Source: Patescibacteria group bacterium (GTDB lineage Bacteria > Patescibacteriota > Patescibacteriia > Veblenbacterales > UBA10138). From it: a stretch of 64,000 nucleotides of DNA. The DNA lies in the NCBI GenBank assembly GCA_041645215.1, contig JBAZQK010000008.1:1744-65743 (forward strand), given 5' to 3'. A program made the position numbers and the translations under genes. Shown here one piece after another: positions 4,364 through 56,456 of the stretch; the stretch's first letter is position 1, and each line of letters begins with the position of its first letter. The notes below the pieces were generated by a model. It was not told the DNA's origin. It made no database searches and worked only from the letters and a program-made list of their open reading frames with translations.

Positions 4364-4585
4364 ATGAAACCATCAAAATTAATGCATGTTATCAGCATTA
4401 TCGTGGGATTCGCCGGCGTGATTACATTTGCGGCCGCGATCCTCGGCGGCGCTGATAACCTTGTATTCGGGGTTACAAAAGTAGATGCCTTGCTCTACGC
4501 CGGGATTCTTGTTCTTATCGCAATCTGGGTTCAGATTGCAACCATTCATCACATGATGCTTGAGAAAAGCGGAGAGATCGTTTAA
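4364..4585 (+). CDS. Small 2-TM membrane protein (paralog of 6938..7111)
   Basis: 73 aa; shares MK.SK..HVIS...G..GV and C-terminal MHHMMLE..GEI with the downstream paralog. Confidence 0.5.
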   Translation: MKPSKLMHVISIIVGFAGVITFAAAILGGADNLVFGVTKVDALLYAGILVLIAIWVQIATIHHMMLEKSGEIV

Positions 4586-4603
4586 TCAATTAATTTAAAA
4601 TAT

Positions 4604-4876
4604 ATGGAACAATTATCACTTAAAAAATACGGCTGGAAATGCGTGCTCGGCTCTGAAATAGTTTACTTTATTTGTCTTTTGGGCGGACTACTCCCTTGGC
4701 GTACCGCGAGGGGCCTAGAACTGCATCACACATTCTTTGAAACTCTTCCCGGATTCACGTGGCTAACTGCCGGTAGCGTGATACTGGGAGCTATCTATTT
4801 CTTTATTTTTGCCTGGATCTTCGCCTGGTACTTCGTCTGGATGCACAACTCCAGCCTGGTTGAAAACAAGAAATAA
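4604..4876 (+). CDS. Hypothetical membrane protein
   Basis: 90 aa, 3 predicted TM; present only in copy A of the duplicated module. Confidence 0.4.
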   Translation: MEQLSLKKYGWKCVLGSEIVYFICLLGGLLPWRTARGLELHHTFFETLPGFTWLTAGSVILGAIYFFIFAWIFAWYFVWMHNSSLVENKK

Positions 4877-4890
4877 TATCATTAATCACT

Positions 4891-5211
4891 ATGTACGACC
4901 ATAACAACCAGAAAAACTCTTCCCTGATATGGATGATGCTCATCTGCCTATTGCTTTTGGTTGTTCTGCTTTTTACGGGAGGCAAGTTGTTGGCCGGCGG
5001 ATACCTCTGGCCGGTTCTTATTGGCGTCTTTGTCATCGCGCACCTCTGGATGATGTTCAAAGGACATAAAGGACACAGCGGGCACAGCGACGCTAATAGG
5101 GCAGAGAAATCTAACCTGCCGGTTCCGCTAAGCCCGGCGCCGGCCGGTGCAACTTTAGCAAAACAACCCGAGGCCAAGGACGAACATAAGCACGGCGGCT
5201 GCTGTCATTAA
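4891..5211 (+). CDS. DUF2933-like small membrane protein with His-rich and C-terminal HKHGGCCH tail
   Basis: 106 aa; one TM; HKGHSGHSD and terminal HGGCCH metal-ligand-like motifs; near-identical paralog at 7130..7450. Confidence 0.55.
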   Translation: MYDHNNQKNSSLIWMMLICLLLLVVLLFTGGKLLAGGYLWPVLIGVFVIAHLWMMFKGHKGHSGHSDANRAEKSNLPVPLSPAPAGATLAKQPEAKDEHKHGGCCH

Positions 5212-5230: not shown

Positions 5231-6115
5231 GTGACAACTATGGAATTACTTTTAAGTGCCTCAATTATTGCCGCCTTTATCGCCGGCGTGGCCGCCCTCT
5301 TCGCGCCGTGTTGCATTACCGTACTTTTGCCGTCGTACTTTGCTTCCATTTTCCGCGAAAAGCGCAAGGTATTCGTGATGACTTTTATTTTCTTTTTGGG
5401 AATTCTCACGGTCTTTCTACCGATTGGATTAGGGGCAGCGGCTCTCGGCAAATTCTTCAGCCAATATCATAATGCGGTGTTTGGCATCGGCGGTATTTTC
5501 CTCACTGTATTAGGAATGATTATTCTTATCGGCAAGCATTTTTCGTTGCCATTTCAAGTACATCCGACGCTTAAAAAACACAGTGCGGCTTCGGTATTTA
5601 CGCTCGGCATATTTTCAGGAATCGCTACTACTTGCTGCGCGCCGGTACTTGCGGGCGTATTGGCCCTCGCAGCACTTCCCGGATCGGTATTTTGGGGTGG
5701 TATCTACACCTTAAGTTATGTTTTTGGAATGGTCGCGCCCCTCTTTCTGATTTCGCTTTTCCTTGATAAAGTCAATTTTGGACAAAAGCTCCAACAAATC
5801 TTCAATAGGCCGGTCCGATATCGATTAGTCGGCAAGGGAATAAGTATTACTGTTTCCGAAGCAGTGTCGGGCATCACTTTTCTTGCCATGGGCGTTTTGA
5901 TTCTTTATCTTGCGCTTACCAATCGACTCTTTATGCAAGCTGGAGGATATCAGATAAACATCAATATTTACCTCACAAAGGTTTTGCAATCAATAAGCGG
6001 CGTCGCGCAAGCGACTCCCGAATATGTATGGGCGCTTTTATTAATCATAATCATTGGCGGAATTGTCTGGCGCGTCGTTCGCCAATTAAATAAAGAAAAA
6101 TATGAACCCCGTTAG
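5231..6115 (+). CDS. DsbD_2/CcdA-like polytopic membrane protein with paired Cys motifs
   Basis: 294 aa, 8+ TM; LFAPCCITVLLPSY and TCCAPVLAGV motifs in TM segments; the last codons and stop (YEPR*) are supplied by the flanking TIR element. Confidence 0.5.
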   Translation: MTTMELLLSASIIAAFIAGVAALFAPCCITVLLPSYFASIFREKRKVFVMTFIFFLGILTVFLPIGLGAAALGKFFSQYHNAVFGIGGIFLTVLGMIILIGKHFSLPFQVHPTLKKHSAASVFTLGIFSGIATTCCAPVLAGVLALAALPGSVFWGGIYTLSYVFGMVAPLFLISLFLDKVNFGQKLQQIFNRPVRYRLVGKGISITVSEAVSGITFLAMGVLILYLALTNRLFMQAGGYQININIYLTKVLQSISGVAQATPEYVWALLLIIIIGGIVWRVVRQLNKEKYEPR

Positions 6116-6244
6116 AAGTCCTTGGCAGAAAAATTTTATTAAAATTTTTCTGCGTTAGACAAACGGGATATTCATAACATAACAATGGGACTGTCTGAAA
6201 TTGATTATTTTGATCATATAAAGACAGACTTCTAACGGGGTGAA
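6103..6244. mobile_element. CCCCGTTAGAA-TIR element copy a (long form, GTC subtype)
   Basis: Perfect 14-bp TIR CCCCGTTAGAAGTC (6107-6120) / GACTTCTAACGGGG (6227-6240), 4-bp direct repeats TGAA at 6103-6106 and 6241-6244; internal 13-bp-stem hairpin GCAGAAAAATTTT-ATT-AAAATTTTTCTGC. Confidence 0.75.
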
Positions 6245-6937: not shown

Positions 6938-7111
6938 ATGAAATTATCAAAAGTGTTGCACGTTATTTCTGTTATCGCGGGGCTTGTTGGGGTTGCTATG
7001 TCGGCCTTCGCTGTTCTTATCTGGCCTGCTGATGTCGTGTGGTTTGGGCTCACGAGGGACATTGCGACTATGCATCACATGATGCTTGAAAATCGCGGAG
7101 AGATTATTTAA
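6938..7111 (+). CDS. Small 2-TM membrane protein (57 aa; paralog of 4364..4585)
   Basis: Not in the ORF track (<60 aa); translation MKLSKVLHVISVIAGLVGV...MHHMMLENRGEII parallels 4364..4585. Confidence 0.45.
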   Translation: MKLSKVLHVISVIAGLVGVAMSAFAVLIWPADVVWFGLTRDIATMHHMMLENRGEII

Positions 7112-7129
7112 TCAATTAATTCAAAGTAT

Positions 7130-7450
7130 ATGCACGACCATAACAACCAGAAAAACTCTTCCCTGATGTGGATGATGCTCATCGGCCTATTGCTTTTGGT
7201 TGTTCTGCTTTTCACGGGAGGCAAGTTGTTGGCCGGCGGATATCTCTGGCCGGTTCTTATTGGCGCCTTTGTCATCGCGCACCTCTGGATGATGTTCAAA
7301 GGACATAAAGGACACGGCGGGCACAGCGATGCTAATAGGGCAGAGAAATCTACCCTGCCGGTTCCGCTAAGCACGGCGCCGGCAGATGCAACTTTAGCAA
7401 AACAACCCGAGGCCAGGGGCGAACATAAGCACGGCGGGTGCTGTCACTAG
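7130..7450 (+). CDS. DUF2933-like small membrane protein, paralog of 4891..5211
   Basis: 106 aa; about 95% nucleotide identity to 4891..5211 (same length, HGGCCH tail). Confidence 0.55.
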   Translation: MHDHNNQKNSSLMWMMLIGLLLLVVLLFTGGKLLAGGYLWPVLIGAFVIAHLWMMFKGHKGHGGHSDANRAEKSTLPVPLSTAPADATLAKQPEARGEHKHGGCCH

Positions 7451-15983: not shown

Positions 15984-16056
15984 ACTGTAAGCTGAATTAA
16001 ATAATAACAAAAATTTAAAACCAGGGAGTACAATACACTTCTTGGTTTTAAATTAT

Positions 16057-16224
16057 TAGGACTTACGCGCTTGCCGCTTTAGGGGCGGGCGCAGCCCGAC
16101 CCCTCAAGCGGCTTTGGCCAATTTCTTCGTTAAAACCTCTGCTTTTCGCTCACCGTAGTTTTACTACGGCTTGCTCAAATGCTCGGTTTTGCCTCGAACT
16201 TGGCTCAAACGCGTAAGTCCTAAT
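16057..16224. repeat. Long-range 14-bp perfect inverted repeat TTAGGACTTACGCG/CGCGTAAGTCCTAA enclosing ~140 bp of GC-rich structured sequence
   Basis: Read directly; internal hairpin CCGTAGTTTTACTACGG. Confidence 0.5.
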
Positions 16225-16419
16225 TATATTAGACCCGTTGCTTAATGAGTACTTTGGCTAAGGTTGGCCATAATTTCTAAAAGGCCTTAATAAGCAACAC
16301 ATCTATTATGTAATCGCATTTTTAATTATCCACAGGCTGGACTTGACCGTTATTTTTATTTGTGTTAACGTGTTAACACGTTGATACAAGATAAATAAGT
16401 CTTAATTTTACTGATATTT

Positions 16420-16786: not shown

Positions 16787-16874
16787 TGAACCCCGTTAGA
16801 AATTCAGTATTCAAACTGGATTTCTGCTGGGGCTAAAAAATGACTATGCTGACAAAAATTTCTAACGGGGTGAA
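16787..16874. mobile_element. CCCCGTTAGAA-TIR element copy b (short form, ATT subtype)
   Basis: TIR CCCCGTTAGAAATT (16791-16804)/AATTTCTAACGGGG (16857-16870); direct repeats TGAA 16787-16790 and 16871-16874. Confidence 0.75.
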
Positions 16875-18159
16875 CAAGATTCAACCAACAATTCTTAAGG
16901 GGACTCGCGATTTTCTTCCGCCGGAGATGATGCGGCGTAATGTTGTAATGGAAATTATCCGCAAGACGTTCGAACAGTTCGGCTATTCTCCAATTGAGAC
17001 ACCCATTATTTGTCCGGCTGAAACCATTTTAGGCAAATACGGCGAAGAAGGAGATCGGCTCACTTATTCATTCAAAGATCGCGGCGGGCGACTCATTGCT
17101 TTGCCGTATGATTTGACCGTGCCGTTCGCGCGGTTTGTCGCGGCTAATTATCAGGATTTACCTATACCATTCAAACGCTATCAAATTCAGCGTGTTTGGC
17201 GAGCAGAAAAGCCGCAAAAAGGCCGCTTACGCGAATTTTATCAATGCGATGTTGATATCATCGGATCAAAAAGCCTGGTCTGTGAAGCAGAAATTGTCAA
17301 AGTGATTACTGTAGTATTTGAGAAGTTAGGTGTTCCAAATATTACGATCAAAGCAAATTCAAGGCGATTGCTGAATGCGATATTGCAGTCTTATGGTGTC
17401 AATCAAAGCGAGATAATATCCACCATTCGCGTTATAGATAAAATCACCAAAGTTGGCGAGGAAAGTGTTATTTTAGAATTGCAAAAGATGGAAATAAACA
17501 ATGCCGAGAAGATAATCGAAACACTTAAATCAGAAGACACGAACAAAAACACGCTCAAAAAACTCTCCGAATATGACCTCTCCGAGTTGGAAGAATTTTT
17601 GTCATATTGCGGCGAGCTTGGTGTGCCAGAAAAGAATCTCCAGATTGATCCAACACTGGCAAGAGGACTTGATTATTATACCGGCCTCACCTTTGAAGTA
17701 GTTAGTGAAGATGCGGACTTCGGCTCAATCTGTGCCGGCGGCCGTTACGATAATCTCTGCGGTTTTTTTTCTGACAAGGATTTTTCCGGAGTTGGCGTTG
17801 CTTTCGGCTTTGAACGCATTATGTTGTTGCTCGAACAACTGAAACTCTTTCGCAGTAGCAATGCGCCTTCACAGGTTCTGGTAACCATTTTTGATGACAA
17901 TTCAATCAAGAATGCATTGCAAACGTATCGCCAGCTTATTGAGGCTAATGTTGCGGCGGAAATTTACTTTGAGCCGGAAAAATTATCAAAACAATTCAAA
18001 TTTGCGGACAAAAAACAAATTCCTTTTGTCCTGATTCAAGGACCGGAAGAACGAGAAAAAGGCGAAATTACAATCAAACGCCTGCAAAACGGCAAACAAA
18101 AAACTATACCTGTAAATCAACTTGTTTCTTATTTATCCAACTATTATGAACCCCGTTAG
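16840..18159 (+). CDS. hisZ: HisRS paralog; probable HisZ regulatory subunit, or a second HisRS
   Basis: Class II aaRS HisRS-like core (LKGTRDFLPPE, WRAEKPQKGRLREFYQCDVD) plus a C-terminal anticodon-binding-like domain. Lies immediately upstream of a short-form hisG. The listed ATG 16840 lies inside the TIR element; the homology-consistent start is GTG 16871 at the element junction. The stop is supplied by element c. Confidence 0.6.
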   Translation: MTMLTKISNGVNKIQPTILKGTRDFLPPEMMRRNVVMEIIRKTFEQFGYSPIETPIICPAETILGKYGEEGDRLTYSFKDRGGRLIALPYDLTVPFARFVAANYQDLPIPFKRYQIQRVWRAEKPQKGRLREFYQCDVDIIGSKSLVCEAEIVKVITVVFEKLGVPNITIKANSRRLLNAILQSYGVNQSEIISTIRVIDKITKVGEESVILELQKMEINNAEKIIETLKSEDTNKNTLKKLSEYDLSELEEFLSYCGELGVPEKNLQIDPTLARGLDYYTGLTFEVVSEDADFGSICAGGRYDNLCGFFSDKDFSGVGVAFGFERIMLLLEQLKLFRSSNAPSQVLVTIFDDNSIKNALQTYRQLIEANVAAEIYFEPEKLSKQFKFADKKQIPFVLIQGPEEREKGEITIKRLQNGKQKTIPVNQLVSYLSNYYEPR

Positions 18160-18229
18160 AAATTCAATACGGATAACACGTTTTAAGATCTATGAAACTA
18201 CAAAAATATACAATTTCTAACGGGGTAAA
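18147..18229. mobile_element. CCCCGTTAGAA-TIR element copy c (short form, ATT subtype)
   Basis: TIR 18151-18164 / 18212-18225; flanks TGAA / TAAA (one mismatch). Confidence 0.7.
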
Positions 18230-22283: not shown

Positions 22284-23005
22284 TTGCCATTATTGACTAC
22301 AAGGCAGGCAATATTGCGTCTGTAAAAAACGCTCTGGAACGACTTGGGCGAGCGTGTGTTGTTACATCCGAGCCGAAAGAAATTTTATCAGCTGACGGCG
22401 TAATATTCCCGGGTCAAGGCCGGGCTGGCGCCGCAATGTCGAACTTAAGAAAAACCGGCATTGATAAGATTATTCCTCAAATTACAAAACCGTTTTTGGG
22501 TATTTGTCTGGGGATGCAACTACTTGGCTCAACTTCCGCAGAAGATAAGACAGAATGCCTTGAGATTTTTCAGGGTGTGTGTCGCAAATTCCCGCCGACA
22601 TTAAAAACCCCGCATCTTGGCTGGAATAAAGTTGAATTGACGGGAGAGTCATCCTTAACCACTGGTATCCAAAACGGGGCATACTTTTATTTTGTGCACT
22701 CATATTACGTTGACCCCGTTAGAAGTCCTCGGCGTAAAAATTGCTGTGCAATTTTTACGCGGTATCAATCAGAGCTCACTACTGAAAGTTGTCGTGATAA
22801 TGACACAATGTCATTATCACGACCAAAGCCGACTTCTAACGGGGTTGATGTTGCGGAAGCTCAAATTGTCGGAAAAACAAGTTATGGTTTTGATTTTCCA
22901 TCGATTATGCAAAAAGGTAATTTTTTTGCAGTCCAGTTTCACCCTGAAAAATCAGGTGAGCAAGGTTTACGATTACTCAATAATTTTTGTGAACTATGTA
23001 TATAA
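22280..23005 (+). CDS. hisH: Imidazole glycerol phosphate synthase glutaminase subunit HisH carrying an in-frame 45-codon TIR-element insertion
   Basis: 241 aa; ...GICLGMQLL...HLGWNKV...YFVHSYYVD [45-aa insert [11 protein letters not shown]...KPTSNGV] DVAEAQ...[14 protein letters not shown]; removal of 22714..22848 restores E. coli-like spacing. Confidence 0.85.
   Translation: [241 protein letters not shown]
22710..22848. mobile_element. CCCCGTTAGAA-TIR element copy d (long form, GTC subtype) inserted in-frame inside hisH
   Basis: Perfect TIR 22714-22727/22831-22844; direct repeats TTGA 22710-13 and 22845-48; element (131 bp) + one repeat = 135 nt. Internal hairpins GCGTAAAAATTGC-TGT-GCAATTTTTACGC and a 15-bp stem GTCGTGATAATGACA-CAA-TGTCATTATCACGAC. 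Confidence 0.85.
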
Positions 23006-24471: not shown

Positions 24472-25145
24472 ACCCCGTTAGAAATAATATAAAAAATATA
24501 ATAAACCCTGTTAGGAACAAAATTTCTAACGGGGTGAATAAACTTAATATCCAACAATTGGATTTTGATAAGTTGGGCGAGATTATTCCTGCAATCATCC
24601 AAGATGCTGAAACAAAAGCTGTCCTTATGCTGGGATTTATGGATAAAGAGGCACTGAACAAAACAATCAAAAGCAAAAAAGTTACATTTTGGAGTAGAAC
24701 AAAAAAACGACTTTGGGAGAAAGGCGAAATTTCGGGCAATACGCTTGAAGTAATCTCCATTGCTGCCGATTGCGATAATGACATACTTTTGGTTTTGGCA
24801 AAGCCGAAAGGACCAACGTGCCACACCGGCGCTTATTCTTGTTTTGGAACTAAAAAGCAAGGTGGGCTTGAATTTTTGCAAGAGCTTTATGATTTGCTAG
24901 TTGCAAGAAAAAAGGATTTACCGAAAAATTCTTACACGACCTCGCTTTTCAACCAGGGGTTGGTTAAAATTTTAGAGAAGGTTGAGGAAGAATCAGGCGA
25001 GGCGCTGCAAGCTGCCAGAAAAGAGACAAGAACGCGGCTTATTGAGGAAAGCTCCGATTTGTTATATCACCTGTTCGTACTGCTTGTTCAAAAAAATATT
25101 TCTCTCAACGATATTACCCAAGAACTCCAACGCCGAAAAAAATAG
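24468..25145 (+). CDS. hisIE: Bifunctional PR-AMP cyclohydrolase / PR-ATP pyrophosphatase (HisIE)
   Basis: IPAIIQDAETKAVLMLGFMDKEAL (HisI) and LYDLLVARKKD...LYHLFVLL (HisE). The listed ATG 24468 lies in the element; homology suggests the start is the junction GTG at 24534. Confidence 0.85.
   Translation: MNPVRNNIKNIINPVRNKISNGVNKLNIQQLDFDKLGEIIPAIIQDAETKAVLMLGFMDKEALNKTIKSKKVTFWSRTKKRLWEKGEISGNTLEVISIAADCDNDILLVLAKPKGPTCHTGAYSCFGTKKQGGLEFLQELYDLLVARKKDLPKNSYTTSLFNQGLVKILEKVEEESGEALQAARKETRTRLIEESSDLLYHLFVLLVQKNISLNDITQELQRRKK
24469..24538. mobile_element. CCCCGTTAGAA-TIR element copy e (short form, ATT subtype)
   Basis: TIR 24473-24486/24521-24534 (13/14); direct repeats TGAA 24469-72 and 24535-38; degenerate internal copy AACCCTGTTAGGAA. 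Confidence 0.7.
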
Positions 25146-37170: not shown

Positions 37171-37216
37171 CCCCGTTAGAAGCAGAATGCCCCGTGTGAG
37201 CTTCTAACGGGGTTTA
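37167..37216. mobile_element. CCCCGTTAGAA-TIR element copy f (minimal form, AGC subtype) between convergent rel and parB
   Basis: TIR CCCCGTTAGAAGC 37171-37183 / GCTTCTAACGGGG 37200-37212; 16-nt loop; direct repeats TTTA 37167-70 and 37213-16; the parB stop codon lies in the right repeat. Confidence 0.7.
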
Positions 37217-38104
37217 CTTTTTACCTGATATCTTACCAACCAGTTCCGCCAAATCGCCGCTGGAATAAAATTCAATCTCAATCTTGCCTTTTTGGTTGCC
37301 GATAATTCTAACCTTGGTCCCCAAAGTTCTTTGCAAATCAGCTTCCAGCTGGCGGAACTGCCAATTGACACCCGGCGCGCCCGCTCGCGCCCGGCCCTTA
37401 ATTTGGGCGGCCTTGGCCTCGGCCAGCCGCACCGGCAAACCCTCGGCCGTAATCAAACGGAAAAATTTTTCCTGCTCTTGGGGTGTTTCCAAACTCAATA
37501 TTACTTTGGCATGACCAAAGGTTAGTTTGCCGTCCCACAAAGCTTGCTTAATACTCTCGGGCAATTCTAACAAACGCAGAGTATTGGCTATTTGTGGCCG
37601 TGACTTGCCGACCTGTTTGGCAATTTGGTCCTGGGTTAAATTAAATTCATCGCGCAACCGGCGGTAGCCTTCGGCCTCTTCCAATGGGTTTAAATCCTGG
37701 CGCTGAATATTCTCCACCAAGGCAATCTCCAATTTTTGCTGTTCATCAAACGGGCGCACTATTACCGGCACGGTCGCCAAGCCGGCGGTTAGCGCCGCGC
37801 GCCAACGCCGTTCGCCTACGATTAAATCATAATTGCCGTCCGCCCGCTCACTTACCACCAACGGCTGTAAAATTCCATGTTCCTTAATGGAGGCCGCAAG
37901 CTCTACTAAACTGGCCTGGTCAAATTTATGGCGCGGCTGTTGGGGGTTGGCTTTTATCGCCTGGGGTGAAATCTGCCTGACGCCGCCATCAGCCACAATT
38001 TTAGTTTTGTCAGCCGCTGGCCCCGCACCCCAGTAATTATCCTTGGCTGGTTGGGACGGTATTAACGAACCCAAGCCCCGCCCGAGTTGAAAAGGTTTTA
38101 CCAT
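37214..38104 (-). CDS. parB: Chromosome partitioning protein ParB
   Basis: 296 aa; ParB box GERRWRAA, HTH, C-terminal dimerisation region. Confidence 0.85.
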   Translation of the reverse strand: MVKPFQLGRGLGSLIPSQPAKDNYWGAGPAADKTKIVADGGVRQISPQAIKANPQQPRHKFDQASLVELAASIKEHGILQPLVVSERADGNYDLIVGERRWRAALTAGLATVPVIVRPFDEQQKLEIALVENIQRQDLNPLEEAEGYRRLRDEFNLTQDQIAKQVGKSRPQIANTLRLLELPESIKQALWDGKLTFGHAKVILSLETPQEQEKFFRLITAEGLPVRLAEAKAAQIKGRARAGAPGVNWQFRQLEADLQRTLGTKVRIIGNQKGKIEIEFYSSGDLAELVGKISGKK

Positions 38105-48214: not shown

Positions 48215-48397
48215 ATAGAGATGGTTTCAAAACCCTTTTCGTGGCGTCCGTAAGGTGGATTGAACGAGACAAGGAAGATGAGCAAAATGCCCGGAAACGT
48301 AGCAGTAGCTACGATGAGGACATTTTGGAAAATCTGACGCAGTCGCAGTCAAAAAACAGAAATTGCAGCAGAAATAGGGTTTTGAAACCATCTCATA
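48215..48397. mobile_element. 177-bp MITE copy 1 with 19-bp perfect TIRs and 3-bp TSD ATA
   Basis: GAGATGGTTTCAAAACCCT (48218-48236) ... AGGGTTTTGAAACCATCTC (48376-48394); flanking ATA/ATA. Confidence 0.8.
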
Positions 48398-48429
48398 ATA
48401 TCCGCCCCGAGGTCCATCAGCGTGGAGCT

Positions 48430-49008
48430 TCATACTTTAACCGTAGTGTTTTCCAATTTACCGGAGCCAATAAAAATACTGATGAAGTTACCGGCTATAT
48501 CAAGGACTTGGTTAAGCCTGATTTTGTCAGTGGCGTTAAATGTTTGTAACACATAGTCTTCTAGCGGTTGAGGAGTAGCGGGCCGGCCGATTCCAATTCT
48601 AAGCCGCCAGAATTTATCAGTGGCCAGATTATCAATAATGCTTTGCACGCCTTTGTGGCCAGCCGCGGAGGCAGCCCATGACGGACGAATCGCGCCGAAT
48701 GGTAAATCAACCTCATCGTTAATAATAAGTAACTGGTTAGAGTTTAGTTTAAAAAATTTCATCACTTCGGCCACGCTCAAACCCGATTCGTTCATAAAGG
48801 TTTGCGGCTTTAACAGGCGCACGGTTGTGTTCTCAACTTTGACTTTTGCCAGTAGTGATTTGGCGGAAGGTTGAGCTTTCCAGTCGAGCGTTAGATTTTT
48901 TTGCTGTAACCAGTAAGCCAACGCGCGCTCGCCAACATTATGTCGGGTTGGTTCATATTTTTTACCGGGGTTGCCCAGACCGACGATTAAAAGATTGATG
49001 GTGGTCAT
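48430..49008 (-). CDS. pth: Peptidyl-tRNA hydrolase
   Basis: 192 aa; LIVGLGNPG...YEPTRHNVG. Confidence 0.85.
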   Translation of the reverse strand: MTTINLLIVGLGNPGKKYEPTRHNVGERALAYWLQQKNLTLDWKAQPSAKSLLAKVKVENTTVRLLKPQTFMNESGLSVAEVMKFFKLNSNQLLIINDEVDLPFGAIRPSWAASAAGHKGVQSIIDNLATDKFWRLRIGIGRPATPQPLEDYVLQTFNATDKIRLNQVLDIAGNFISIFIGSGKLENTTVKV

Positions 49009-49037
49009 AAAAATAAATTAAGTAACTTTAGAGCAGT

Positions 49038-50342
49038 TTAGCTTTTGGCTCGATTTTGCAAATTAACTTTGATTGGCGTACCGCTAAAATCAAAACCATG
49101 TCTTAGTTTGCCCTCAACCCAGCGGGCGACGGCAGTGGGTAGGACAACCTTAGTGTTAAAACGAAGTTGAAAGCGCGGCGGGGCCGTGCCAATTTGTTCA
49201 AGCGCCACCAGCGGTAAATTTTTAATCGGATGGAGGCGCCGAATATAGTTGGTAAATTTAATTATTTCGGCGTCGCTTAGTCGGCGCTGCCAATTGCTTT
49301 TAATTTGTTCGGCCAGCGGTATGATTTTATAAACTTTATGGCCGCTTAGCGCCGATACCCAGAGACAAGGTGCGTAGCTTAGCATGGGCAAATAGTGGGT
49401 GATGCTTTTGGCAATGATTTTGCGTTCCTCCAACTCTACTAAATCAGCTTTGTTAAGAATTATTACAACCGGACGAGAAGTTTTGGTGGCGGCATCAGCC
49501 AGGGCCTGATCCTGCCAGCTTAATTTTTGGCGGGCGTCTATGACCAATAAGATTACGTCCACCGCCGGCAGGATTTGCATAGCTTGTTGGACGCTTTGCG
49601 TTTCTAAGGTTGGCGCTTTATTGATTTGCCGTCTAACCCCGGCGGTGTCAACCAACTCCACTAAAGTATTAAAGTGAAAAAAATAATGATGTTGGCGGTC
49701 ACGCGTGGTATGAGGCGTCGCCAGCACTAAACTGCGTTCGGCATTAAGTAAGCGGTTAAAAAGTAATGACTTGCCCACGTTAGTTTGTCCGATAATAGCC
49801 AGTTTAAGCGACGGTTTTGGCTCCTCGATTTTATTTATATGCGGCCACATTGCGTCAAGCAGGTCGCCGACGCCGACACCGGTTTTGGCGGACAGCAATT
49901 GGGTGGTAAATTTTAATATTTGTTGCGGCGCGCGGGCGCGCTGGCGCGGTCCGTCAATTTTGTTAACCGCCACGATAACATTTTTTTGCCAGCGCTGGAG
50001 TTTTTTGATTAATTCTAATTCTTTGTCAAGTAAGCCGGTTTGACCGTCAATGACAAATATTATCAGACGGCTGGTTTTAATAAGGCGATTGAGTTTTTTT
50101 AAACCCGCCTGTCCGGCGGGGTCCTGGGCCAGCGGATCAATTCCACCACTGTCGTAAATTAAAAAATTTTGTCCCCGCCAATTAACCAGGCCCAGATTAG
50201 TGTCGCGGGTGGTACCGGCTTCGGACGAAACCAGCGCTTTATTGCCGCCGACAAGGCGGTTGAATAAGGACGATTTACCGACATTGGTTCGTCCGACAAT
50301 TACAACTTCAGCTTGAGGAAGGAGTGGCATAATTTTTAACAA
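49038..50342 (-). CDS. der: Ribosome-associated GTPase Der (EngA), two tandem G domains + KH-like domain
   Basis: GRTNVGKSSLFNRL and GQTNVGKSLLFNRL P-loops. Confidence 0.85.
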   Translation of the reverse strand: MLKIMPLLPQAEVVIVGRTNVGKSSLFNRLVGGNKALVSSEAGTTRDTNLGLVNWRGQNFLIYDSGGIDPLAQDPAGQAGLKKLNRLIKTSRLIIFVIDGQTGLLDKELELIKKLQRWQKNVIVAVNKIDGPRQRARAPQQILKFTTQLLSAKTGVGVGDLLDAMWPHINKIEEPKPSLKLAIIGQTNVGKSLLFNRLLNAERSLVLATPHTTRDRQHHYFFHFNTLVELVDTAGVRRQINKAPTLETQSVQQAMQILPAVDVILLVIDARQKLSWQDQALADAATKTSRPVVIILNKADLVELEERKIIAKSITHYLPMLSYAPCLWVSALSGHKVYKIIPLAEQIKSNWQRRLSDAEIIKFTNYIRRLHPIKNLPLVALEQIGTAPPRFQLRFNTKVVLPTAVARWVEGKLRHGFDFSGTPIKVNLQNRAKS

Positions 50343-50362
50343 TCGGACGGTTAATTAAATTC

Positions 50363-50545
50363 AATGAGATGGTTTCAAAACCCTTTTCGTGGCGTCCGTA
50401 AGGTGGATTGAACGAGACCAGGAAGATGAGCAAAATACCCGGAAACGTAGCAGTAGCTACGATGAGGACATTTTGGGAAATCTGACGCAGTCGCAGTCAA
50501 AAAACAGAGATTGCAGCAGAAATAGGGTTTTGAAACCATCTCAAT
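50363..50545. mobile_element. 177-bp MITE copy 2 with 19-bp perfect TIRs and 3-bp TSD AAT
   Basis: 50366-50542, ~96% identical to copy 1; flanking AAT/AAT. Confidence 0.8.
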
Positions 50546-50914
50546 AAGTCTCATACTATTTTATCATACAGCAAACCGTCCGCTTTCGGTAATTTGGTTC
50601 CGTTCAGCCGGGCCTGGTAGGAAATTTAAAATTTACCTGCCCGCCATCGGCCTCTTGCAATCGATAATTATTATTTAGTGCTGTAGCTTTCTATTTAATA
50701 GCATCGTTTACTTTGTACAGGCTTAGGCAGGCGGGCCTGCCCGCCCCGTCATGGCTTCGCCAGATCTCGCAGAGCGATGACTTAGCAGGGCCCGCCGTTA
50801 GCCTTAGAAATATCACTATAACACTGAAACACTGGAACACTAGATCACTGGATCAAATTTGTTCAAGTGTTAAAGTGTTCCTGTGATTAAGTGTTTCTTG
50901 ATTCTTTATTAAAG

Positions 50915-52047: not shown

Positions 52048-52156
52048 TTTACCCCGTTAGAAGCAGGATGCCCCGCCGATTCGGCGGGGATGAATGCCCA
52101 ATTCTCAACAGCGAACACGGGGTTTAATGCCCCGTGTGAGCTTCTAACGGGGTTTA
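52048..52156. mobile_element. CCCCGTTAGAA-TIR element copy g (AGC subtype) upstream of the LCP gene
   Basis: TIR 52052-52064 / 52140-52152; direct repeats TTTA 52048-51 and 52153-56; interior shares ATGCCCCGTGTGA with copy f plus extra hairpins CCCCGCCG-ATTC-GGCGGGG and CACGGGG-TTTAAT-GCCCCGTG. Confidence 0.7.
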
Positions 52157-52454
52157 CCCACGCCTTAGTCCGATTTAGGGGCCCCAGCGTGGGAGTTGGG
52201 CGCTCTAAAAGTTCAAAGGAGTTGATATCGCAGTAAGATCAGGAGCGCTTCACAAGGCGCAGAAAAAATGGTAACATTTTGTATATTTATTTGTCAATTT
52301 ATCGTTTAGATTATATACTGTGGTGGCTTTAACTGCCGGTGTAGCCATAGCGGCAGCACGTTAGCTGTTATTTATTCACTTATTTAACAAGGTTGGTTGG
52401 CTTTAGGCCCAAAACGTCCGGCCCAGGAACATTTATCACCCTACTATATTCTAA

Positions 52455-52529: not shown

Positions 52530-52961
52530 CGATGTATTAAGTCAAAAGTTAAAAGTCAAAGGTCAAATCTACAACGCAAAGCTCAAAACTTTTTAGTTTA
52601 ACCAAATTAACAATTAATTATTTACTCTGCCGCTATGCCGTAGGTTCAGCTAGCAATGCGGCACCCGTGTGAAGGCTAAGCTGGCGCGTGTTGTGGTGGT
52701 TTGTGCACCCGCCTGCCTAAGCCTGTTCTTAAAGTAAGCGACGCTATTAAATAACAACGAGTAATATTAAGTTATAGTTGTTGATTACAGCAGGACTATG
52801 GCGGGCAGGTAGCGCCAGCCCTGAACGCGGGTAGCATTGCCTGAATCGAAGGCTTTAAGCGGCGACTCTTGTGTTACTTCTCTAGAGAAGTAACAAGAAA
52901 TTAATTTAGATTTAGGATTTGATGTAGAATTTAGAAATATCTATAACTTTACTAATTATTT

Positions 52962-55408: not shown

Positions 55409-56047
55409 ATGACGCCAATGAAAAATATCATTGCCCCCATCGAGACCATAACCAAAGGCCAAGCTGGCAGAGCCGCTGACCGATTTATGGAATTCTGTTA
55501 CAAAAACGCCGCATCGCTTCCCAAGGATACGGTGCAACAAGTCCTTGAGGAAGAAGGAGACCAACTGTCGCAGGAGATGTTCGAAGCCTTGCGCAAACGC
55601 GTCGAAGCTCGCTCATCAATGATTGTGCGCCATGTGAAGGTCAATCGCAAGCAGTCACCCGTACAGGTGATTGATGCAACCGGCCGCGTAAAGTACATAA
55701 ACGATGATACCCTGGCAAGTATGCCAAGTGAAGGAGCGGAAGAGGTTGATATGTACTTTTTCAAGCTCGATAAGTACGTGTCCGTCGATGATCTTGACCG
55801 CGAGTATGAACGCTGCGGTCTGGTACCCGACCCCTATGTGCAGTTACAGGCGAATACCGACGACCCTGCTTTTGCCGATGAGCACCCAAATGGTGGTCAG
55901 TGGCGAGACAGCCAGGGCCGTGCCTGTTACATCGCTTTCGGCCGGGACGGCGACGGGCGCAACGTCGGCGTGCGCCGCAGCAGCCTCGACTGGCATGACG
56001 ACTGGTGGTTCGGTGGCGTCCGCAAGCCTCAGACGCTTGGACAATAA
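55409..56047 (+). CDS. DGR target protein with C-terminal variable region
   Basis: 212 aa; the C-terminal ~34 codons (55924-56026) are the variable-region counterpart of the template repeat; ends ...DWHDDWWFGGVRK. Confidence 0.8.
   Translation: MTPMKNIIAPIETITKGQAGRAADRFMEFCYKNAASLPKDTVQQVLEEEGDQLSQEMFEALRKRVEARSSMIVRHVKVNRKQSPVQVIDATGRVKYINDDTLASMPSEGAEEVDMYFFKLDKYVSVDDLDREYERCGLVPDPYVQLQANTDDPAFADEHPNGGQWRDSQGRACYIAFGRDGDGRNVGVRRSSLDWHDDWWFGGVRKPQTLGQ
55924..56026 (+). repeat. DGR variable region (VR)
   Basis: ~93 nt alignable to 56363-56456; 15 differences, all at positions where the template has A. Confidence 0.85.
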
Positions 56048-56350: not shown

Positions 56351-56456
56351 TGTTGTACATTCCGCTTTCAACCGGAACGGCGACGAGCGCAACGTCAACG
56401 TGAACCGCAACAACAACGACTGGAATGACAACTGGTGGTTCGGTGGCGTCCGCAAA
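56351..56456 (+). repeat. DGR template repeat (TR)
   Basis: AAC-rich (FNRNGDERNVNVNRNNNDWNDNWWFGGVRK in the VR frame); identical to VR except at 15 adenines; shared GC-rich 3' end GGTGGTTCGGTGGCGTCCGCAA (IMH-like). Confidence 0.85.

Follow-up and report, generated by a model that had tools for sequence, protein, structure and literature searches.

Two copies of a probable IS5-type miniature inverted-repeat element flank the genes der and pth in a Patescibacteria genome

The DNA analyzed here is a 64-kb window (64,000 nucleotides) of contig JBAZQK010000008.1 from a Patescibacteria group bacterium (assembly GCA_041645215.1), in which two short repeats enclose the genes pth and der. The repeats are 177 bp long each, are located at positions 48218–48394 (copy 1, + strand) and 50366–50542 (copy 2, + strand) of the window and have the same orientation, whereby they constitute direct repeats. 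Between them, on the minus strand, lie pth, which encodes peptidyl-tRNA hydrolase (48430–49008; Pfam PF01195, E = 1.5e-54), and der, also named engA, which encodes a ribosome-biogenesis GTPase (49038–50330; two Pfam MMR_HSR1 domains and a KH_dom-like domain). The likely start codon of der is the ATG at 50330, which gives the recorded product of 430 amino acids. Copy 1 follows the pth stop codon at a distance of 35 bp and precedes the start of a nitroreductase gene by 92 bp, and copy 2 is located 35 bp upstream of the der ATG. According to Pfam, the neighbors of the gene pair are the nitroreductase gene downstream of pth and a LytR-family gene upstream of der.

Each copy is bounded by perfect terminal inverted repeats (TIRs) of 19 bp, which a TIR scan placed at 48218–48236 (+) and 48376–48394 (−) for copy 1 and at 50366–50384 (+) and 50524–50542 (−) for copy 2. 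All four are exactly GAGATGGTTTCAAAACCCT, the right ends being its exact reverse complement, and within the window this sequence occurs at these four sites only, even if up to three mismatches are allowed (chance expectation 0.03). In copy 1 the end beginning with TTTCGTGGCG (A end) is on the left and the end terminating in ...TTGCAGCAGAAAT (B end) is on the right. Direct reading of the flanks revealed a different 3-bp target-site duplication (TSD) for each copy, namely ATA at 48215–48217 and 48395–48397 for copy 1, and AAT at 50363–50365 and 50543–50545 for copy 2. The similarity between the copies stops abruptly at the element ends, and the DNA outside of the duplications is unrelated. An initial annotation of the window, made from the sequence alone, had described the two copies with their perfect TIRs, the differing direct repeats next to them and their location around the pth-der pair, all of which was borne out by the TIR scan and alignment, the direct reading, and Pfam, respectively. 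Its estimate of about 96% identity with five substitutions had to be corrected, since the pairwise alignment yielded four substitutions (173 of 177 positions identical, 97.7%). The 177-bp element codes for nothing. None of the open reading frames (ORFs) touching the copies has a Pfam match, and those at 48241–48549 (+) and 48227–48433 (−) start in the element itself or show an antisense overlap with pth, in agreement with the earlier suggestion that the ORF 48241–48549 is an artefact. With its small size (in the class of about 50–500 bp), TIRs, differing TSDs, dispersed copies and no transposase ORF, the element has the properties of miniature inverted-repeat transposable elements (MITEs).

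In order to cover sites beyond the window, an exact 19-mer scan was carried out with 185,579 representative genomes (GTDB) and with IMG/VR, and JGI/ENA metagenome contigs were scanned for the 19-mer preceded by a non-G base. This requirement excludes cold-shock protein genes, in which many exact matches occur and had to be set aside, as the same bases there encode the peptide G-D-G-F-K-T-L. The scans led to the identification of small elements bounded by the same TIRs at about 20 additional sites, which are located in Patescibacteria assemblies and in metagenome contigs. The initial annotation had reasoned that a TIR restricted to the two places in the window, with identical flanks, would speak for a segmental duplication rather than for transposition; the additional sites and their different flanks show that this is not the case. 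The elements have sizes of 56, 159, 162, 175–178, 195, and 304 bp, whereby those of 162 and 195 bp represent one subfamily, and the 177-bp relatives are 80–98% identical to the window copies. They derive from metagenome-assembled genomes (MAGs) labelled Saccharibacteria, Parcubacteria, Minisyncoccales, Patescibacteria group and, in one case, Pacearchaeota, and further members were obtained from groundwater and other metagenomes. No match to the element was found on plasmids. Copies of 177 bp with ~98% identity are present in contigs L062 and L071. The former is clearly a separate site. The latter shares a single flank with copy 1 over 19 bp, after which the contig ends, and its far flank is uncertain; this is probably an assembly-graph end artefact, and L071 was therefore left out as a separate TSD. 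Only a single (solo) TIR was found at two Yanofskybacteria loci, and in L001, L020, and L021 the sequence behind the solo TIR is unrelated. The Pacearchaeota-labelled bin (GenBank DAOSDI01, “Candidatus Pacearchaeota archaeon AMR_MDS_1835”) holds 162-bp members at three loci (L005, L008, and L017). Spread of the element across domains was considered here and rejected, since the genes at these loci, encoding a type I MetAP, a bacterial-type TIM, and ComEC, are bacterial, and the archaeal label of the MAG is probably wrong.

Genomic contexts and orientations vary among the members, and the interiors are unrelated between subfamilies. All members nevertheless share a common layout, which consists of the 19-bp TIR, an asymmetric subterminal motif and further inverted sequence. 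The A end has the form ...CCCT(t)TTCGTnnCGAAA and the B end the form ...CCCTaTyyyrCTGCAAT. Compared to its closest relatives, the window subtype has a segment of the A arm replaced by GTCCGTAAGGTGGAT, which is itself a small hairpin, and the 304-bp variant carries a larger insert at this position.

The flanks of the family members were then used for an analysis of target duplication. A perfect 3-bp TSD is present at 11 of the 22 distinct sites and one with a single mismatch at 6 of the 22, whereas a 4-bp repeat is found at none of them. As a null, left and right flanks were paired across different sites, which gave a match rate of 9%, and the excess over this rate has a binomial p of about 1e-6. 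Thus, there is good support for transposition into AT-rich sites by means of a staggered cut of 3 bp. The perfect TSDs (ATT, ATA, TTA, AAT, and TAA) contain no bases other than A and T. The initial annotation had described the 3-bp AT-rich duplication as reminiscent of PIF/Harbinger-IS5-like transposition. The IS5 part of this proposal is backed by an identical 19-mer on an IS5-family insertion sequence (IS), which is described below, but the TWA rule of PIF/Harbinger is fitted by only 3 of the 11 perfect TSDs (TTA twice and TAA). A target duplication of 3 nt has been given as a trait of the IS5 family's IS1031 group (PMC2516522).

The IS5-family element was found in the soil contigs L031, L060, and L067 (65–67% GC). 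Both of its ends are contained in L031 and L060, and there it has a length of 900 bp; one end is the identical 19-mer and the other one is GAACTGGTTTCAAAACC. L067 comprises the end with the identical 19-mer together with part of the transposase gene. The match of 19 out of 19 positions sits at the tip of the IS and has the same outward orientation as in the MITE. The transposase gene of the 900-bp element is frameshifted into two overlapping ORFs, which when joined match DUF4096 (1.7e-29), DDE_Tnp_1 (8.6e-20), and DDE_Tnp_1_2, and single-ORF homologues of the L060 transposase, with ~268 amino acids, are named IS5 family transposases. In L060 the element interrupts tandemly repeated 8-bp units (GGTTCTAG; 700–810 and 1710–1760), and from their periodicity a TA target duplication is evident. 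Further relatives in L078 and L081 have lengths of 942–1004 bp and TA on both sides, and the single ends that were read in L077 and L082 are each preceded by TA; the TIRs in these four contigs have the form GA(A/G)nnnnTTTCAAAACC. A GCAAT motif near position 30 is present in several full-length relatives as well as in the MITE ends. In comparison with five full-length relatives and the ISNme1 TIR, the MITE ends show the GA/GG start and the ...TTTCAAAACC core of IS5-type ends. The right-hand inverted repeat of the full-length clade overlaps the end of the transposase gene, and many transposases of the clade end with ...LRRVLK (AGG GTT TTG AAA) or ...RF*, whereby LRRVLK is encoded by the TIR core AGGGTTTTGAAA. 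It may be this dual role as code for the transposase C-terminus that explains the invariance of the core across very different hosts. Solitary exact 19-mers with CTA in front were also detected in eight non-CPR (candidate phyla radiation) metagenome contigs (L038, L041, L042, L053, L056, L063, L072, and L073). They continue with ...CTCAGGTCATTTAGAATCC or ...TCCAGCTCCTTTAGAATC, have no partner TIR or nearby transposase, and possibly represent solo ends that belong to related IS5-type elements.

Overall, the window element resembles the IS427/IS1031-type ISs of the IS5 family (DUF4096 and DDE_Tnp_1, about 0.9–1.0 kb) in its terminal 19-mer, which is identical in L060, in the common TIR form GA(G/A)nnnnTTTCAAAACC with subterminal GCAAT, and in its short target duplication (2–4 bp in the family and 3 nt in the IS1031 group, compared to 3 bp for the MITE). 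It differs from them in that these ISs carry a transposase, whereas the window element has 177 bp and no ORF. The anatomy, the independent insertions, the family-wide 3-bp A/T-only TSDs, the identical TIR on an IS5-family IS and the lack of a transposase in the window form the basis on which we consider the window element, with high confidence, to be a MITE of IS5-family type. We infer the identity of the mobilizing enzyme, the cut-and-paste chemistry and any current activity of the element only indirectly. Judging from the TIR identity, a DDE transposase of the DUF4096 and DDE_Tnp_1 type might be supplied in trans and would bind to the 19-bp TIRs and to the conserved subterminal GC(G/A)AAT motifs. 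The element would then be excised and inserted into an AT-rich site via a 3-bp staggered cut, the repair of which would yield the 3-bp duplication.

Several observations weigh against this assignment. The initial annotation had proposed to look for a full-length element with the same TIRs that encodes a DDE transposase. Such an element was found insofar as the 900-bp IS carries the identical 19-mer at one end, but neither the window nor any of the CPR genomes and loci fetched yielded a full-length element with these TIRs. In addition, tblastn with 120 IS5-type transposases as queries yielded no IS5-type transposase in the window, as the initial annotation had already claimed, nor in the fetched CPR loci. 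Two large protein searches, for which the L060 transposase and a low-GC relative served as seeds, gave no CPR-labelled homologue among the best 120 matches. Six contig look-ups of relatives did not reveal a CPR-resident full-length element, and the CPR contigs scanned contain no pair of exact TIRs 0.8–1.5 kb apart. Furthermore, the closest full-length ISs, among them that with the identical 19-mer, lie in CTAG-like sites where TA is duplicated, in contrast to the 3-bp A/T-only duplication of the MITE family. Thus, the true partner is not among these ISs, which are its relatives, and it must differ in its target handling. Likewise, no empty site could be aligned precisely, as the intergenic DNA of the sole syntenic relative is unalignable. 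Finally, the data on the host genome comprise the 64-kb window with its two copies, which limits what they say on copy number and current activity.

The element is also predicted to form a hairpin. Each copy folds end to end with −66.8 kcal/mol (z = −7.2; opposite strand z = −9.0). Pairing was analyzed in an alignment of 14 distinct members of 175–178 bp, the consensus fold of which has 55 pairs. Compensatory changes, in which both sides of a pair are altered and pairing is kept, occur at 15 of these pairs, a count that was reached in 0 of 500 column shuffles, whereas sliding the partners by 1–3 columns gave counts of 1–5. Together with the strong fold and the fact that both copies are intergenic, have the same orientation and are separated by 35 bp from the stop codon of pth and the start of der, respectively, this would be in line with a MITE that has been co-opted by the host and is transcribed with der or pth as a hairpin of ~177 nt, serving as mRNA stabilizer, attenuator/terminator or processing site. 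However, the wobble counts are symmetric, with 12 G-U pairs on the given strand compared to 11 A-C (equal to G-U on the other strand), and thus lack an RNA-like strand bias. A comparison with Rfam gave no match, neither for the window at the gathering threshold nor for the element at E ≤ 1, so that a strand-specific RNA was rejected. A promoter or terminator function was rejected as well, since promoter and terminator scans remained at background, and no U-tract follows the hairpin. The differing contexts and orientations of the family members and the lack of the element in the syntenic relative speak against co-option, too, which we therefore regard as unlikely. As the wobble pairs show no strand bias, the constraint concerns the Watson-Crick complementarity of the two arms, and most likely the arms are kept complementary over their whole length at the DNA level. 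Such a constraint is in line with paired transposase-binding ends, with a hairpin or cruciform of the DNA, or with self-correction of the palindrome.

It could also be that the family represents an “orphan” MITE lineage across several Patescibacteria classes, which is moved by IS5-type transposases of the epibionts' host bacteria or is kept for a structural role as DNA or RNA. Under this assumption, the identical TIR that an IS of a high-GC soil bacterium carries would be a trace of trans mobilization, and the invariant 19-bp TIR, the hairpin with compensatory changes and the fact that the searches found no CPR-encoded transposase are the features to which it appeals. We consider this to be quite improbable. 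A very improbable alternative is that the MITE is moved by a non-IS5 transposase and that the likeness of its TIR to IS5-type elements is convergent. This would agree with the lack of a cognate transposase in the window and the fetched CPR loci and with the 3-bp duplication as opposed to the TA of the nearest IS5-type relatives. It is at odds with the full 19-bp match, which occupies precisely the tip of an IS5-family IS and has the same outward direction, with the common subterminal GCAAT motif and with the coding of the C-terminus of that transposase clade by the TIR core, and a TSD of 3 bp is among the lengths known for the IS5 family. That the element is immobile and either originated by segmental duplication or is a conserved gene for a structured non-coding RNA with a TIR-like terminal stem is barely conceivable, since the presence of two copies only in the window and the covariation of the pairing across the family are outweighed by the unrelated flanks with their differing TSDs, the about 20 sites in other genomes with TSDs far above chance, the size range of 56–304 bp with interiors unrelated between subfamilies, the missing Rfam match and the identity of the ends to an IS end.

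As an IS5-type MITE, the window element has its closest counterparts in ATR from Neisseria meningitidis, which is derived from ISNme1, and in BrickBuilt and related MITEs from Porphyromonas gingivalis. These are IS5-derived, have GAGAnnnTTnCAAAA ends, and are likewise small and non-coding with IS5-type TIRs starting GAGA...TT.CAAAA (PMC4596501). As for the window element, their parent was deduced from TIR identity. They differ from it in sequence and host phylum; moreover, the TSD length of BrickBuilt varies, whereas it is consistently 3 bp in the window family, and the parent ISs of ATR and BrickBuilt reside in the same genomes, whereas none was found for the window element. Among eukaryotic elements, the Tourist MITEs of PIF/Harbinger depend on a transposase superfamily related to IS5 and have a 3-bp AT-rich target duplication. 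This duplication is typically TWA, in contrast to the window family, which is bacterial, does not follow TWA and shows no sequence similarity to them. Correia/NEMIS, ERIC/IRU, and RUP elements are intergenic, have 100–200 bp and a long stem-loop, and are often co-transcribed with neighboring genes. The window element resembles them in size, intergenic site and stem-loop, but they have other parent IS families and TSDs, and the symmetric wobble counts of the window element argue for a constraint at the DNA level. REP/REPIN sequences, which are mobilized by RAYT and consist of short REP hairpins arranged as inverted pairs without TSD, were rejected, as the window element has TSDs and the TIRs of a DDE-type IS.

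With regard to the host locus, both copies appear to be passengers in the intergenic DNA around der and pth, and no sign of a regulatory role at these genes was found. A composite transposon that brought der and pth to this place was ruled out, since the flanks on the outer sides are not the same (ATA and AAT) and each copy has a TSD of its own. A “Patescibacteria group bacterium” MAG contains a protein named Der with 100% identity to the window Der, and the next relative, with 64% identity, is from a Candidatus Kerfeldbacteria MAG. The syntenic relative, in which the order HisS-S26-LytR-der-pth is conserved and Der is 64% identical, does not contain any TIR. The genes der and pth are generally essential. 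The initial annotation had suggested that recombination between the copies could delete or invert them; as the copies are directly oriented, recombination would delete der and pth but not invert them. Two public contigs that are identical to the window end 24–27 bp inside the TIR regions, as short-read assemblies do at multi-copy repeats.

Other repeats were observed in the window as well. The 11-mer CCCCGTTAGAA occurs 14 times, compared to 0.04 expected occurrences in 64 kb, and always in inverted pairs 42–134 bp apart, which form seven small palindromic elements (6107–6240, 16791–16870, 18151–18225, 22714–22844, 24473–24534, 37171–37212, and 52052–52152). These are probably the first MITE family of the initial annotation, in which the 177-bp element is counted as the second. 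An identical 32-mer is located at 37186–37217 and 52126–52157. The 304-bp MITE variant (L054:2599–2902) harbors a nested inverted pair of similar kind (CCCCGTTAGAAAT...TTTCTAACGGGG), further in than the larger insert of this variant. A MITE-like element of ~190 bp with imperfect terminal inverted arms of 30 nt (GGTTTTAAATTATTAGGACTTACGCGCTTG...) lies at 16044–16235, and a 96% identical copy of it is present at L062:6950–7136, on the contig that also holds a 177-bp MITE. In the unusually long non-coding stretches adjoining copy 2, an inverted repeat of 81 nt (73% complementary; 50634–50714 and 52731–52811) brackets the LytR-family gene and a tRNA-Val gene. Direct repeats of 300 nt (95%; 4890–5189 and 7129–7428) and 72 nt (86%; 4535–4606 and 7061–7132), each spaced about 2.2–2.5 kb apart, resemble a local duplication and not a mobile element, and a 93-nt direct repeat (85%; 55933–56025 and 56363–56455, spacing 430 bp) is probably a repeated coding module. 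The cumulative GC skew has its peak at ~25.6 kb and its minimum at ~48.0 kb, ~200 bp to the left of copy 1, and in the 22-kb segment between these turns the skew is reversed independently of the gene strand. This segment could be inverted or could represent a replication landmark. A MITE-mediated inversion at the skew turns was rejected, as there is no element remnant or shared repeat at the 25.6-kb end.

A full-text literature search gave no description of MITEs in CPR/Patescibacteria, in whose small genomes mobile elements are thought to be scarce. The family described here is undescribed in the searchable literature but otherwise ordinary and widespread in Patescibacteria. Apart from its TIR, it is an ordinary selfish element. 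The TIR shows one route by which such an end can stay invariant across phyla, namely by a core that doubles as code for the transposase C-terminus. The element also accounts for assembly breaks and spurious ORF calls at sites of this kind, and the family provides a concrete marker of recent DNA mobility and exchange between CPR lineages.

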